Source: Octopus vulgaris (lineage: Eukaryota). From it: 64,000 nucleotides of DNA. Numbering within the stretch: position 1 is the stretch's first letter; each line of letters opens with the position of its first letter. Position numbers and translations under genes: made by a program. Under the pieces are notes generated by a model. It saw only the letters and a list, made by a program, of their open reading frames with translations, ran no database searches and had not been told where the DNA came from. Where the stretch lies: positions 33,976,001-34,040,000 of the forward strand of contig OX597826.1 in the NCBI GenBank assembly GCA_951406725.2. The letters are read 5' to 3'. Below are positions 29,771 to 43,493 of this stretch, piece after piece.

Positions 29771-30630
29771 TTATGTATGTGGGTGTGTATGTATGTATGC
29801 GAGAGTGAGTGAGAGAGAGAGAAAAGGAGAGTCAGATTAAGATGCTGAGTATATAAAGAAGAAAGATATACTGCAATAAAATGGAGCTGTACAAGAAACG
29901 GGTCAGCTAGTTGATGCCCATTATAGGACTTCAGCGTGAAATTATTTCCCCATATAAAGCGGAGATAATTTGAAGAGTGCATAATGGCTGTAAGAGCTGT
30001 CAATGCTTATCAGCCATTGGTTATTGTTGTGTTGTGTGTTGAAGAAGACAGTAAAAGATCAGCGCTCGTTTCCCCGCCATCCCTTGGCGAAGAATTTGAA
30101 AAAAAAAAAAGATTGTTATATAAAGATAATGTGTCAGACATGTCTGTGTTCGTGCAAAGATGCTTTTATAAGCGTAAACATACTAAATATCGACTAAAGC
30201 AGTATTTTCAAGCATTTCTTTTCTATGGACACTTTAATTCCTATTTAACTCTAACGGACCCTCATAGCCATTTGATGTTTAAAAAATCCGATTTCATTAT
30301 TATTGTTATTGTTGTTAAATATTATAAGCAATTGTATAAAAAATTCAAATATTTTGTGTATTGTAGAAGCAAAACCAATTTATCGCAGACAAATTTTAAC
30401 AACAAAATCTTATATGGGACCTACAAGAGCCATATGGACCACTTATCTTTTCCATTTACTTGTTTCCGTCAGTGAGTACTGGAATCGGTTTTATATATAA
30501 ATACACACACACACACACGCACACACACACAAACGCAGTGTTATTCTCCTGTCTGTATTCTTCTATCTACAATTTTATTCCTTATAAACTCTGAATTTCC
30601 CTGTCTAGAACTTTCATACTAACTCACTTT

Positions 30631-30706
30631 GTCTCTGATGACGGAACACTCTGAGTACGGACATACTAGCCTATCACTAGGGATATCCCAGAAACAGCTG
30701 TAAGAC
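30631..30706 (+). ncRNA. Type-I hammerhead ribozyme with extended, partly decayed stem II
   Basis: GTCT-CTGATGA-(49 nt)-GAAA-CAGCTG-TA-AGAC. Stem I is GTCT/AGAC, stem III is the palindrome ACAGCTGT and the cleavage triplet is GUA. ATTAAA lies 5 nt downstream and the cassette ends in (TA)n at ~30780. Confidence 0.7.
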
Positions 30707-31444
30707 TTCAAATTAAATATTCTAAATGACTTGAGATACTCGTCCTAAATTGGTTTTGTTGTCCTTTTTTCCTCTAAGGAATATATATATATAAACAACT
30801 TACTGTAAATAAAACCAAGGGTGCGATGCGTTCCTTTAATAATAAGGTTTTAAAAAAATGTATAGTAAATGAACAAACGAAAAACAGACGTAGAATGGCA
30901 AGTTAAAGTACATATAGTAAATGCACAGTTATCGGCCAGAGAGTCAAATGCAATTTCGTGCCTTTAACGATAATATTATTTCCCTTCTAATGGCACCGGA
31001 AAGAGCTGCCGGAAAAATGGGATCGAGAATAGACAAACAATACATGGATAAGAAGCAATACAGAAGTGGACATACAGAAATGAACAATATAATTCAAGAC
31101 GTGACCGTTAGTGGACGGACGAGGGACAGAAATGAAATAAATAAATAAGCAGAATGTGGCCTTATGGCTAGGAAAAGATGAAGCATGGGTAACACTAATA
31201 GGGAAATCCCAAAGGATCAGAAACAGAAGGGCAACAGACAGCGAAACAGGTTGAAGTGGAGACTAGAGAAATTACGACAGGTTGCTTCAACGGCCGGCGT
31301 AAAAAAGGGAAGGAGAAAAGAGGGGAAAAAAGGCTGATAACCGGTTACGTATCAGTAGCGGGCAGAAGAGAAAGAGTGTGAGAAGGAGAGAGGGAGAGAA
31401 AGGCAGAAACATAAAGAGAATATATATATAATATATATATGCAT

Positions 31445-31547: not shown

Positions 31548-31654
31548 TTCGAGTAGCGTGCATATTGTGAAAAAATATGGTTAATGGACAATATGTCCAA
31601 TTTTTCGGCATATCTGGCATTAGACATTTTTTCGTTTGCCCTTAATTATGAATT

Positions 31655-31703
<49 letters not shown>

Positions 31704-31924
31704 TATAGTCAATTTAGGGTAGCAAAAAATTCAATAGAAATTTATCGCTACCAGCGGCCCAGTGGAAAAGAGAAAATAGTAAAAGACTAAATATATAAAT
31801 ATAACAATTTAGGAGTGACCTTAACAGGCCATTCGTCCACCAGAAAGAGCAGCCATAACTCACACCGCCAAGTAGTAGTAATTCAGAAATTAGGTGAAAA
31901 TTTAAAATCATTTACCCTAATTCA

Positions 31925-32026
31925 TCTTTTAGACGATGCATCGTTTCTGTGTTATTAATGATTAAATTAGCTTAATTAAATTAAATTAAGCTAATCTACC
32001 ATAGGTCACACTTCATCAGTAAAAAA
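31925..32026 (-). ncRNA. Type-I hammerhead ribozyme (minus-strand twin of 32254-32355)
   Basis: Reverse complement of the plus-strand copy, identical across the motif by eye. Confidence 0.75.
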
Positions 32027-32253
32027 CATGGGAGAGACAAATATACACGAGGCCGCTGGTAGCGATAAATTTCTATTGCATTTTTTGCTACCCTAAATTG
32101 ACTAATTGATAATTTTCTGAATAATTCTGAGATTGAATCGGCAGTTTATATTTACTGCTAAGTTTGGCGCGAATACGTCGGTCTTGAAAATTTTAAGACA
32201 GATATTCCGGAGGCATCGATACAGACGCCTCGTGTATATTTGTCTCTCCCAGG

Positions 32254-32355
32254 TTTTTTACTGATGAAGTGTGACCTATGGTAGATTAGCTTAATTTAAT
32301 TTAATTAAGCTAATTTAATCATTAATAACACAGAAACGATGCATCGTCTAAAAGA
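32254..32355 (+). ncRNA. Type-I hammerhead ribozyme with long stem II
   Basis: TTTTTTA-CTGATGA-A-GTGT...ACAC-A-GAAA-CGATGCATCG-TC-TAAAAGA. Stem I is 7 bp (one GU), stem III is a 10-nt palindrome and the triplet is GUC (cut after 32348). Stem II contains a 15-bp hairpin TAGATTAGCTTAATT/AATTAAGCTAATTTA. Confidence 0.75.
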
Positions 32356-32834
32356 TGAATTAGGGTAAATGTTTTAAAATTTTCACCTAATTTCTGAATT
32401 ACTACTACTTGGCGGTGTGAGTTATGGCTGCTCTTTCTGGTGGACGAATGGCCTGTTAAGTCACTCCTAAATTGTTATATATATGCATATATATATAATA
32501 TATATGCATATATATATTTATATATAAGCACAGACATGCACGAGTACATATAAAAGCACACACACACGTGTATATATATTTATACACACACACACACACA
32601 CACACACACTCATATATAAAGTATTTATTTCGATAACTCATGTACTTATACTTTCTTAACGGACATTTGAAAAATACTTGAAAACTAAATATTCTAAAAA
32701 TAAATACCTACCATTTATTCACCAATTGAAATCTAATAAATGTTTAAAATGAAGAAAATATATTAGAATCTTTTTCGTCATTCACATGGTTTCCATAATG
32801 AGTTTTTTAAGTCACGCTTAATTAATTGTCTCTA

Positions 32835-34684: not shown

Positions 34685-35136
34685 ATGGCCCCGTGGACAA
34701 CAGAGCATCGTGTGTTTGCCTACGACAGTTACGTGAAGAATAACGAATGTCACAGCAGTTCAGTGTGAGTTTTGGCGTTACTTCAACATTCACCAAAATC
34801 AGGCTGTTCCCACCCGTAACACAATGTTATGTTGGGTGAATGCACTTCGTACATGAGGTACACTAATGAATAGGAGGTTGGTGGTGGGGGGCACGAACGG
34901 TACGAAGCCAGAAAAATGTGGAACACGTCTGAACAAGGTTTGAATCTGAATCGCTCTGCTCAGAGGCATTCCACTGAACTTGGCATCGGTAATCGATCGT
35001 TAAGGCGTATTTTGCACGAAGACCTGCATTTCCACCCATACAAATTGGTCATTGGGTAACAGCTGAAACCATGGGACTATGCACAACGGCTTAACTTTGC
35101 ACGTCAGATGGATGCAATTATTGAGGCAAATGACAG
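34685..35136 (+). mobile_element. Tc1/mariner transposase pseudogene, N-terminal half (DUF4817-type HTH)
   Basis: MAPWTTEHRVFAYDSYVKNNE..VTAVQCEFWRYFNIHQNQAVPTRNTMLCWV..., then RSAQRHSTELGIGNRSLRRILHEDLHFHPYKLVIG*QLKPWDYAQRLNFARQM. Confidence 0.85.
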
Positions 35137-35336
35137 TAGCAGCATTTCCATTATTGTCTTTAAAGAAGGATGGACTAATGACAGCAGCTTTTCCAGCAGC
35201 ACACCAAACCGTCACTTTTGGGTCGTGCAGTGGTCCTTCGTGCAGTTCTCTCAGATTTTCAAGAATCCAATAACGACAATTCCGTTGATTCATCAGGCCA
35301 TTGAGATGAAAACGAGCCTCATTAACTATTATTAAT
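35129..35336 (-). mobile_element. Same transposase, next segment, inverted
   Basis: Minus strand LIIVNEARFHLNGLMNQRNCRYWILENLRELHEGPLHDPKVTVWCAAGKAAVISPSFFKDNNGNAATV (cf. SDEAHFHLNG.VNKQNCR.W...PLH..KVTVWC...IGP.FF). Confidence 0.85.
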
Positions 35337-36569
35337 CTGTAATTAATATTTAGAATTGGTACTGAGCAAGTTTATCTTTCGACAGTAATACACACACACA
35401 CACACACATATATATATATGCATACACACACACACATATATATATATATATACACACATACATATACATACCATATACATATATATACATATACATATAT
35501 TTATGTTTGTGTACGCATGTCTGTATGTATATGTGTGCCTCGTTGTATTCTTATCCTGGCATAGGGCGATAATTGTGAACGAGTGTTTCAGTCATACAAG
35601 CGGTGTCATTTACCCCCCCCCCCCAATCTTCCGTGAAAATATATCTTGACTTGTTGAAATATATTCCTTCTTTGGGAAGTGGTAAGAGTTAGCGACCAGG
35701 AAATCATCCAGCAGTAGAAAACATATTTGTAAGAATTCCTTCTAACTTATGCAGGCATGAGAAAGTAAATATGATCATCATGATGATTTGTTACGCATGC
35801 AGCATCCTCTTAGCTTTCATTCTGATACGGATTTTTTAATGCTTCTCTTCAAATACAACGCAGGAATATCTGTATAGAGCTAGCCCCATACTTCTGGAAA
35901 AAAAAAAGAGAAAAAGAAATTCAAACACCACTTTGTATCAGAAAGGTGGAACTAGCTACTTGGCATTATTTGTACCAGAGTTAGTAAACGTTAAGTTTTA
36001 TCTAATGTACAACCATTACTGGGTAAACAGTATTTGATACTTTGTTATAATAACAGGACACTAAAATTTATCGAAGTATAAAAGTTGATGTCGACATTTC
36101 GGCTAGCATCTTTGAAAACAAAACCGTATCTTTTATGGATGTAAAAGTGAAAATTTATAGGTCACCAATGAAAGTTTATTGGTAAGTTATCATGTTCGAT
36201 ATCATTGGAAATCACCAGATAAATTCAAATATATATTTATTCTCTTGTGATTATTGTCAATGTATAAAAGACAATATTGTATGAAATGTTTGGATGTCAC
36301 ATTGTTAGAAGTTTTATCAAGAAATACAAAGAAAATATCGTGAAAAATGATAAATATTTAACTTAAAATGAATAAAAATACGGATGTTTAGTACAAGCGT
36401 GATTATATCGGCTTTTTATTTTTTAGAAGAATGTAGGACTTAGCAACCTTTATGCTTTTTCTAAAAGTACGAATGTTAGCTGTGTCTAGTGATGTTCATC
36501 AGATAGCAAGAGTGTTTCACGACGGATTTATCACTTCGCAATAGCATATGACACTTAAATAGAAATAAT

Positions 36570-41520: not shown

Positions 41521-41963
41521 ACCCTTACATGAGGCCGACATTATTGAAAGATGTAAATGTATGAATAGCTAAAGATGATGAGGTTAATAGTTGGAAAAAT
41601 TATCATTTTAATAACAATAACTCATGTTAATAACTGAAGTCATTTAAATATTGCATCTATTCAATCCATCCTCTGTTCCTACCTCTACAACCCTTCCTCA
41701 TTACATCTACAATTCTAATTAAGCATTAAAAAATGCTGTAAAATTATATTAGTGTTATCTTGATGTTATCTATTCATTAAAATGGTTCTAGATTGAAATC
41801 CTGCTGCGATCATGGTTGTCTTTGATCCTTGCAGAGTTCAAGAGATCACAAATAGTTGAGTGTTTTGAGTTAATTTAGGAAAATATGCCCCTCCCTTGCG
41901 AATACAAATAAACATTGTCTGCATGTGTAATTACGCTACATTATTATTGTAATTAGTTGGGTA

Positions 41964-42560
41964 AAGCGGTGAGCTGGCAGAATCCTTAGTGTTCCAGGCA
42001 AAAAAAATACTTAGTGGCATTTCGTGCGTCTTTACATTCTAAGTTCGAATTCCGCCGAGGACGAATTTGCCTTTCCTCCCATTTGGGGTCGATGAAATAA
42101 ATACCACTCGAGCTCTGGGATCGATGTAATCGACTTACACCTTTCCTCAATCTTCCTGGCCTTGTGTCAAAATTTGAAATCTTAATTATTACAATTGATT
42201 AATTAATTTGTCGCCATTTCTTCTGTTTCTTTCTAAGTTCAAATTCCGCCGGAGTCGACATTGCCTTTCAACCTTTCGCTGTCAAAAAAAAAAAAGTACT
42301 AGTTGAATACTAAAGTTGATGCAAATGAATTAATCCCACCCTGAAGTTGCTAACCTTGTACTAAAATTTGAAATCATTATTATTTTTAGAATTGTTAGCA
42401 TGCCGGATAAAATGTTACATGGCATTTCTACCGCTTTTACATTATGAACTCAAATTTCGCTGACCTGAACTTTGTCTTTCCTTCATTCGGGGTCGACAAA
42501 ATAAGTACCAGTTGAGTCCTGGAGTCGACACTCCTTGTCCCTCGAAATAGGTGCCTATAG
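41964..42560 (+). mobile_element. Three tandem SINE family A copies
   Basis: Copies at ~41964-42180, 42212-42375 and 42388-42560, each with a B-box-like GTTC.AATTCCGC and a GTCGA..AAATAA.TACCA-like motif. Confidence 0.85.
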
Positions 42561-42609: not shown

Positions 42610-42995
42610 AGCTCTTACAGTGCTTCCCCACCACATAGTTCCTGGTTCAGTACTTCGAGCAAGTGTCTTCTACTATAGCCTCGGGCCGACCCAAGCCTTC
42701 CTCCGCACAAAGTTTCCATCTATTATCACCTATTCTATAAGGTTTTGCTTTACTAATAATTTCCCAAGTAATCGAAAATACTCTGTTACTATCTTTAAGA
42801 GCCCAAATTAGCCTATTAAGGCTGGTACAATTCGTTTTGTTCCTATTTCTAAACGAACTTAAATTATTGGTAATTCTCTGTTTAATATAACATGTGGTAG
42901 CACCTATATAGAAATATTCTCTATTCTCAAACCCTTCAAAGTGGCGTCCCAGCATGACCGATGAGAAATGACCGAAACAAGTAAAAGGTAAAAGA
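42610..42995 (+). mobile_element. SINE family B head and tail enclosing a foreign fragment
   Basis: The head ends CTTCTACTATAGCCTCGGGCCGACCCAAGCCTT (42699). The tail resumes CCCTTCAAAGTGG.G.CCCAGCATG.CC...ACCGAAACAAGTAAAAG (from ~42932). Confidence 0.75.
42698..42930 (-). mobile_element. Penelope-like GIY-YIG endonuclease fragment
   Basis: Open frame YFYIGATTCYIKQRITNNLSSFRNRNKTNCTSLNRLIWALKDSNRVFSITWEIISKAKPYRIGDNRWKLCAEE, matching PLE YIG.T...K.R..NH..SF...T.L...IW.LK...I.W.I...A.PY...C.LC..E. Confidence 0.85.
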
Positions 42996-43493
42996 TATAT
43001 AAATACATCAGAAACAGAGAATGGAGGAAGTCACGAAATTCTTTGTTCAAATTCTCTGCAATTGCTTTGACTCATCCTGCATCTGTATCTCACAGGAGAG
43101 TTGCTGTCCAATTAATTGTCTTACATCACAGGTGCTGATTGAGTTCCCTCAGATGACTTGTTAAACAAGTACCTCGTTCTTTCTTCTCTCCATATCACCC
43201 AACTCTATTACGATATATTTTTAGGAAGTCTGCTATATTCTAGAAGTTTTCTTAAGAAACCCACCTGTGAGGTACAGATGCAGGACTAGCCGAAGCAATT
43301 GTAATGGAATTTAAGAAACTCATAAATTCTATTTTTTGTATCTGAATGTATTTATATAAACTCCACAGACACCAAGGAATTCCTGAAGTAAATCCAGGAT
43401 CATAAGGTACCACTACTGATGTTGACATCTGTTAGCCAATAACTATAGACATGCTTTACACAGCATCCTACGAGGTTTATACGCGAATAATTT

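Follow-up and report, generated by a model that had tools for sequence, protein, structure and literature searches.

Two priming events probably placed a 469-nt hammerhead repeat in both polarities at one (TA)n site of Octopus vulgaris

How does a short repeat with a hammerhead ribozyme motif come to lie in both polarities within a single element? The question is raised by a locus of Octopus vulgaris that sits between (TA)n tracts in a 64,000-nt stretch of AT-rich animal DNA full of microsatellites (contig OX597826.1, positions 33,976,001 to 34,040,000; hereafter the window). A sequence-only reading had taken it for a recent cDNA of a circular or tandem non-coding ribozyme RNA, copied with a template-switch inversion and probably mobilized by a Penelope-like element (PLE). 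Hammerhead repeats mobilized by PLEs have been described in many animals (PMC7229834; 10.64898/2026.07.22.740005). The locus is a real young insertion of an apparently undescribed family within this known class. In our judgment, it is probably one insertion of a high-copy, non-coding 469-nt hammerhead family, likely a non-autonomous PLE of the non-LTR retrozyme class, arising from a staggered cut in (TA)n at which priming occurred twice.

The segments A-x-B-A'-y-B' occupy 31706-32480, exactly as they had first been delimited (Table 1), and contain near-identical inverted repeats: A and A' differ at 1 of 54 sites, B and B' by three substitutions and one single-base indel. Both the strand switch at a shared GGC and the proposed closed loop of about 469 nt hold up, the unit A'-y-B'-x'-A' measuring 469 nt. 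In the sense of the family, the right arm reads A'-y-B' (430 nt) and the left arm B-x-A (348 nt); their 3' ends face outward into the (TA)n tracts and their 5' ends meet in the middle of the element. The unit is non-coding, with a longest ATG frame of 11 codons, a GC content of 0.34 and no ORF for an RT or a GIY-YIG endonuclease, and the 64-kb window holds neither a second copy of it nor a pLTR-type match to it elsewhere. For the family at large, we used public sequencing runs, 20 of the 24 listed rows (seven studies, three organism labels) holding words of the stretch; four runs, none of them from organism C (X5, X13), were aligned to 31745-32240 at 85% likeness, namely X1 and X2, which are DNA, and X8 and X11, which are RNA by guess, no row being recorded as RNA.

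Table 1. Coordinates of the locus and of related joints, counted from the first letter of the window.
Feature	Position	Strand	Remarks
Candidate target-site duplication, left copy	31692-31707		TA tract with GC interruption; last 2 nt also match the element end
A	31706-31759 (54 nt)	-	left (inverted) arm ends here (3'); hairpin predicted before the shared 9-mer
x (x' in unit order)	31760-31798 (39 nt)	-	linker that the right arm lacks; makes up a 93-nt one-sided tail with A
B	31799-32053 (255 nt)	-	left-arm part with the hammerhead; 5' truncation at the strand switch
GGC microhomology	32051-32053 (3 nt)		head-to-head junction of both 5' ends
A'	32051-32104 (54 nt)	+	right arm begins here (5'); repeats the 3' end of the left arm
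y	32105-32226 (122 nt)	+	single-copy; joined to B' in other copies (X2, X8, X11; joint 32039/32240)
B'	32227-32480 (254 nt)	+	hammerhead-bearing; 3' end of the right arm
Candidate target-site duplication, right copy	32476-32491		identical 16-mer; first 5 nt also match the element end
9-mer CCTAAATTG near the A' end	32092-32100	+	4 nt before the end; mirror at 31710-31718 on -; candidate priming signal
9-mer CCTAAATTG near the B' end	32466-32474	+	1-6 nt before the end; mirror at 31805-31813 on -; candidate priming signal
Type-I hammerhead motif	32253-32356	+	helix I of 8 bp, G10.1-C11.1 between extra As (32268, 32332), long helix II, palindromic helix III tetraloop
Helix I of this motif	32253-32260 with 32349-32356	+	8 bp, including two G-U
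Core and GAAA of this motif	32261-32267; 32333-32336	+	
Predicted cut of this motif	after 32348	+	GUC triplet
Near-palindrome prolonging helix II	32282-32317 (36 nt)	+	most of the unit's excess folding
Type-I hammerhead motif, mirror copy in B	31924-32027	-	predicted cut between 31932 and 31931
Head-to-head joints, X1	31876/32059, 31974/32134, 32003/32058		one contig each
Head-to-head joints, X2	31969/32089, 31994/32080		one contig each

That B' contains a complete type-I hammerhead was confirmed, and the motif is present in B as well. The core CUGANGA, the GAAA, a NUH triplet, three helices and an open helix I are all there, helix III being closed by a palindromic TGCA loop, and a strict motif scan gave two matches in the real window (in B and B') and none in each of 30 shuffled 64-kb windows. 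An A/A at positions 10.1/11.1 had been noted as a caveat. The oddity itself is real, in the form of a second extra A before the GAAA (32332), but the pair is not non-canonical: a G-C pair opens helix II, set off from A9 and G12 by one additional A apiece (32268, 32332), and to judge by its letters the motif is better read as G10.1-C11.1 with two extra As flanking it. PLE hammerheads with an extra nucleotide separating position 9 from 10.1 plus G10.1-C11.1 are known (PMC4209133); for an extra A on the 3' side of the pair, before G12, the accessible text of the PLE hammerhead literature yielded no description, and this nucleotide may weaken cleavage. The proposed check against Rfam did not recover the motif, with no hammerhead family among 78 matches or among eight at E <= 10, a miss for which the 65-nt insert in helix II may account.

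Among the matches listed in the four runs, the core and both extra As show no variant at 5% or above; a variant at 31936, which is frequent (63% in X1, 40% in X2), shortens helix III and keeps the palindrome. In the modelled 126 nt, the minimum-energy fold is more stable than the hammerhead fold by 2.4 kcal/mol, and two helix-III segments are predicted at -18.7 kcal/mol as a dimer versus -1.0 kcal/mol alone. Cutting by the hammerhead is predicted, probably at its best in a dimer formed via the palindromic loop. Activity is not to be assumed, because eight of nine predicted Xenopus dimers failed to cleave (10.64898/2026.07.22.740005). Contig 19 of X8 ends at 31931, the first base past the predicted cut; we rejected this as evidence of cleavage, given that the end lies 30 nt from the contig's last private variant (31901), as is typical of assembly graphs.

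The two arms carry the same haplotype. They agree at all nine family-polymorphic sites of B, including an allele at 31953 with a frequency of 4-12%, and all five differences between them are private, the letter of one arm occurring in less than 5% of the family at each site. As far as the letters go, the shared haplotype points to one template or one source array. Given these shared alleles and private differences, the arms were probably identical at insertion and have since drifted by 0.8% each, unless the differences are consensus errors; the copy is young, as had been proposed.

The outer ends of the arms bear marks of the insertion event. An identical 16-mer stands at both ends and, with 9 nt of it lying outside the element on the right, the candidate duplication spans 9-16 bp. 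This 16-mer is mostly TA and palindromic, 8 of the 144 TA-tract ends in the window (about 6%) have the same start, and its 12-mer recurs nearby at 31436 and 32501, the background being locally higher; as a target-site duplication, it is only suggestive. Furthermore, each arm has CCTAAATTG no more than 6 nt from its 3' end. On both strands of the 64 kb, this 9-mer occurs five times, where about 0.8 occurrences would be expected by chance; four are at the arm ends and the fifth follows 42 nt after a second, unrelated hammerhead.

The course of events that we propose would start from a head-to-tail source, transcribed into a multimeric RNA that includes B-x-A-y-B (about 1.5 units) and stays uncut at both hammerheads. 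The GIY-YIG endonuclease of a PLE, which we infer to be the mobilizing enzyme, would nick the TA tract once on each strand, the nicks about 9-16 bp from each other. One nick would prime at the end of B, and reverse transcription back through y and A would give the right arm of 430 nt; the other would prime where A ends, 93 nt further along the repeating unit, and the copying of A, x and B would give the left arm of 348 nt. The two cDNA ends would then be joined head-to-head via the 3-nt microhomology, by which A would be duplicated. The hammerhead may release monomers or circles as other retrozymes do, a step that would be unnecessary for this locus. No autonomous partner was found or linked to the unit. 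The template-switch inversion of one cDNA, as originally suggested, was rejected: x is absent from the right arm, and two priming events appear to be needed since the fold-back of a single cDNA could not supply it. Twin priming on one RNA and dual priming on two RNAs fit the locus alike and cannot be told apart here.

The earlier view of the locus as a cDNA of a circular or tandem non-coding ribozyme RNA stands with regard to the non-coding repeat and the order of the unit; nothing at the locus calls for a circle, as an uncleaved multimer suffices. A ligated circular 469-nt monomer of the same family, primed twice, seems to us an unlikely template, if one worth weighing. It would agree with the closed order of the unit, with both arms reading across the predicted cut site, with the one haplotype common to them, and with coral, mussel and axolotl retrozymes, which accumulate as circles (PMC7229834). 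On a single circle, however, the left cDNA would run into the first priming site 93 nt on and would have to displace a 254-nt RNA-DNA hybrid, or else two molecules would be involved. The uncleaved multimer accounts for the same facts, and uncleaved RNA is the main substrate of an anole PLE (PMC11167929). Moreover, the predicted circular fold of the unit, 60% paired, reaches a z of -3.6 to -3.8 with the helix-II palindrome (-3.8 for the unit as it stands) and an unremarkable -1.2 without it.

Other copies of the family bear on the order of the unit. Contigs matching it number 1495 in X1 and 840 in X2, and the summed word depth is 3.8e4-8.8e5 versus 8-29 at single-contig joints, a depth that is no copy number; as a rough estimate, the family is high-copy, with about 10^2-10^4 copies depending on overlap inflation. 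The y-B' joint is bridged in contigs of X2, X8 and X11, the B'-x' joint in X2 (record 11) and the A'-y joint in X8 (record 23). A diverged 262-nt contig (X8 record 19), with 22 differences and 30 unaligned letters at the place of x', reads B'-x'-A'-y, and the letters of x' appear as loose ends before A' in 11 contigs of X1 and one of X2, below the 31-letter bar. In the public contigs, x' is joined to B and to A' in other family copies, and all four unit junctions recur, in contigs too short to span two consecutive units. The x'-A' junction, whose absence elsewhere had been named beforehand as a sign of a one-off rearrangement, was found; because other copies follow the order A'-y-B'-x'-A', the 469-nt unit is not a one-off.

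In the DNA runs X1 and X2, the share of contigs that continue into unlike sequence is 0. With its junctions closed, no run-on into unlike sequence and no ORF, the 469-nt loop belongs to the family as a whole, which looks non-autonomous. The same facts, four junctions closing on each other in a loop without an ORF and no run-on, make it improbable that the arms derive, as fragments, from the pseudo-LTRs of an autonomous PLE, with the loop reflecting its partial-tandem junction. Such an origin would suit the PLE traits of the hammerhead, namely the extra nucleotide after position 9 and the palindromic loop III, as well as the opposite-strand hammerhead pairs reported near truncated PLEs (PMC4209133), and only 18 loose ends are listed where 110 more exist; by eye, however, the 18 look like x' letters, subfamily variants or TA tract.

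Some further observations concern the diversity of the family. Loose ends at 31837, 32023 and 32157-32159 represent subfamily variants with a longer hairpin near the B end, a different helix-I extension and a y indel, respectively. In X8 record 20 (31791), another copy of the family passes the B' end by 8 nt and, within x', gives way at its 3' end to a TA run, which is consistent with priming in the TA-rich start of x'. The haplotype of X8 and X11 is in the minority in X1 (T at 32007: 100% versus 13%), which may reflect one transcribed subfamily or other individuals or libraries and was not counted as evidence. Exact-pattern scans gave 0 matches in metagenome, prokaryotic and viral contigs.

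Among the matches listed, five other contigs, three in X1 and two in X2, join B in antisense to A' or y in sense at different breakpoints (Table 1). Their short sides of 21-28 letters fall under the 30-letter caution at 85% likeness, each being weak alone, and the two-polarity form probably recurs in the family. The two polarities that had been singled out as a notable feature are real but not special to this locus: they are a described product of PLE insertion, and similar joints probably exist elsewhere. In four of the five joints, the right arm starts inside A', 15-46 nt before the A end, compared with 53 nt at this locus, and in the fifth it starts 30 nt beyond that end. For this clustering, P is about 0.01 under a uniform null and 0.05 if only this type of joint is detectable. 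Starts clustered in A' are predicted if the running cDNA collides with the second primer at the A end; a transcript 5' end near A' could equally give rise to them. A stalling of left-arm 5' ends in helix II was also considered, with 4/5 ends at first (P 0.009); since the insert of 33 letters at the 31994 joint resembles, by eye, a diverged B up to about 32020, the count fell to 3/5 (P 0.07) and the claim was dropped.

A later DNA-level inversion within an ordinary tandem copy, or an assembly artefact, is very improbable, for although no contig piece among the matches listed in X1, X2, X8 and X11 crosses the locus's own inversion junction and TA tracts are fragile and difficult to assemble, a tandem that was simply inverted would carry no duplicate of A at its outer end, one and the same 9-mer marks the stop of either outer end, the five private arm differences are unlike an artefactual mirror, and similar joints with other breakpoints occur in two organisms.

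Two priming events on an uncleaved multimer can be set beside known systems, and the suggested retrozyme- and PLE-like character is supported by the type-I hammerhead, the inverted arm, the one-sided tail and the (TA)n target. Like non-LTR retrozymes, the family is short, non-coding and low in GC (34%), has one type-I hammerhead per unit, a head-to-tail order and a high copy number, and fits their proposed PLE dependence (PMC7229834; 10.64898/2026.07.22.740005). Its 469 nt exceed the 150-450 bp of one account (PMC7229834) and fall within the 51-972 bp of another (10.64898/2026.07.22.740005). Unlike in retrozymes, the locus consists of two sub-unit arms head-to-head, with no tandem, and helix II is very long. 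For a mismatch at helix II's base, with cleavage kept, there is a precedent in the axolotl HHR_Amex2 (PMC7229834; 10.64898/2026.07.22.740005), and a 2026 preprint ties animal retrozymes to PLE pLTRs (10.64898/2026.07.22.740005).

Likewise, the insertions of Penelope/Poseidon, Neptune and Hydra PLEs have an inverted 5'-truncated copy at their 5' end, a tail at one end only and a (TA)n target, carry the hammerhead in their repeated part, and have head-to-tail non-autonomous derivatives such as the Chlamys elements (PMC8557442). The inverted 5'-truncated arm, one-sided tail and microsatellite target are all present here; the locus differs from canonical PLE insertions in its absent ORF and in its tail of 93 nt, compared with the 30-40 bp described (PMC8557442). 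Non-autonomous PLE pairs are known in Chlamydomonas (PMC9977147). In vitro, the anole PLE Poseidon PAc cleaves and extends both strands and starts at two internal RNA sites, the spacing of which defines the tail, mainly on uncleaved RNA (PMC11167929), and our locus would resemble it in the two internal starts, the extension of both strands and the uncleaved template. PAc starts in an AC-rich stem-loop without homology to the target (PMC11167929), whereas both inferred starts here follow one 9-mer, with a TA microhomology of 2-5 nt. Twin or dual priming of L1 also yields two inverted fragments of one element within a target-site duplication, here a candidate one, the outer end of the inverted arm lying near the inner end of the other; unlike in L1, there is no poly(A) here, a 54-nt duplication takes the place of the internal deletion, and the template is a repeating unit (PMC2837659). 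Finally, the minimal hammerheads of Schistosoma PLEs share the extra nucleotide between 9 and 10.1, the G10.1-C11.1 pair and the palindromic loop III, and occur as opposite-strand pairs 100-700 bp apart; ours differs in its longer helix I (8 bp) and helix III (4-5 bp) and in the second extra A before G12 (PMC4209133).

In Octopus vulgaris, PLEs are abundant, with 31 recently active families (PMC13282606); the accessible text of the supplement to this study makes no mention of a hammerhead or retrozyme. A literature search, with most subscription papers, Repbase and Dfam outside its scope, met no description of this 469-nt family or of cephalopod retrozymes.

A second type-I hammerhead motif at 30631-30706 (+) has a 1-bp helix III with a palindromic AGCT loop, a 4-bp helix I and a 49-nt helix-II region, and such short-helix motifs occur in 0 of 100 shuffled windows. 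It, too, has an extra nucleotide flanking helix II at either side, is followed by the 9-mer at 30744-30752 and a short TA tract around 30780, has no homology to the 469-nt unit, and is probably the remnant of another PLE-linked family. The unit likewise has no homology that we could find to 30545-30790, 30800-31420 or 31549-31655. A unique piece of 100 bp, flanked by TA tracts and lying immediately left of the element (31549-31652), ends in letters like those of the B' end and may be another short insertion in the same microsatellite.

Ten kb off, a degenerate GIY-YIG-like frame (42683-42931, -) resembles PLE endonucleases. It has no Pfam family and no homologue at E <= 0.001, and its first match in the Atlas is an unnamed cluster at 0.94, followed by GIY-YIG clusters at 0.91, which makes it a lead only, without a link to the element; upstream of it lies a diverged direct repeat (42996-43105 and 43255-43358, 73% over 112 columns). 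At 41950-42560, two or more related SINE-like repeat fragments stand side by side, presumably copies resembling an abundant octopus repeat. A long tandem minisatellite (813-2000) gives rise to long repetitive open frames, and the frame 35003-35371 (-) resembles by eye a fragment of a Tc1/mariner-type transposase, with no Pfam match. No tRNA genes were detected in the window by ARAGORN, and no gene was found near the element in a comparison of 121 of 158 candidate frames with Pfam, in which two of the 121 gave matches, both below the cut-off.

At the RNA level, a read-through transcript of both arms is predicted to be 83% paired at -483 kcal/mol, so that the duplex anticipated in the sequence-only reading would form as far as folding goes, and it is predicted to mask the ribozyme; if transcribed, it might also be a substrate of ADAR or Dicer, as that reading held. 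There is no excess of A>G or T>C in X8 and X11, assembled contigs being unable to reveal editing.

Inverted arms, (TA)n targets, one-sided tails and opposite-strand hammerhead pairs have all been described for PLEs. The two polarities of this locus, its most conspicuous trait, are an expected product of a PLE. New here are the candidate target-site duplication of 9-16 bp, the position of both arm 3' ends within 6 nt of the same 9-mer and the presence of one haplotype in both arms. The remaining interest lies in the 9-mer at both inferred starts, in the length of the tail (93 nt), in how the breakpoints cluster and in the two bulges of the hammerhead. A more far-reaching view, doubtful but conceivable, is that the family forms a natural map of PLE integration, in which CCTAAATTG, present twice per unit, would set the start of reverse transcription, its paired use on one uncleaved multimer would produce both the tail and the inverted arm, and the PLE-linked hammerheads of this host would be an active variant in which an additional nucleotide stands on either side of G10.1-C11.1. 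The origin of inverted arms and tails in PLEs has been named an open question (PMC8557442); with its many young insertions, a family that is short and non-coding offers a test case, in which start sites, junctions and target-site duplications are countable within one genome. Perfect duplexes of about 250 bp would be a further product, should head-to-head copies prove common and be transcribed.
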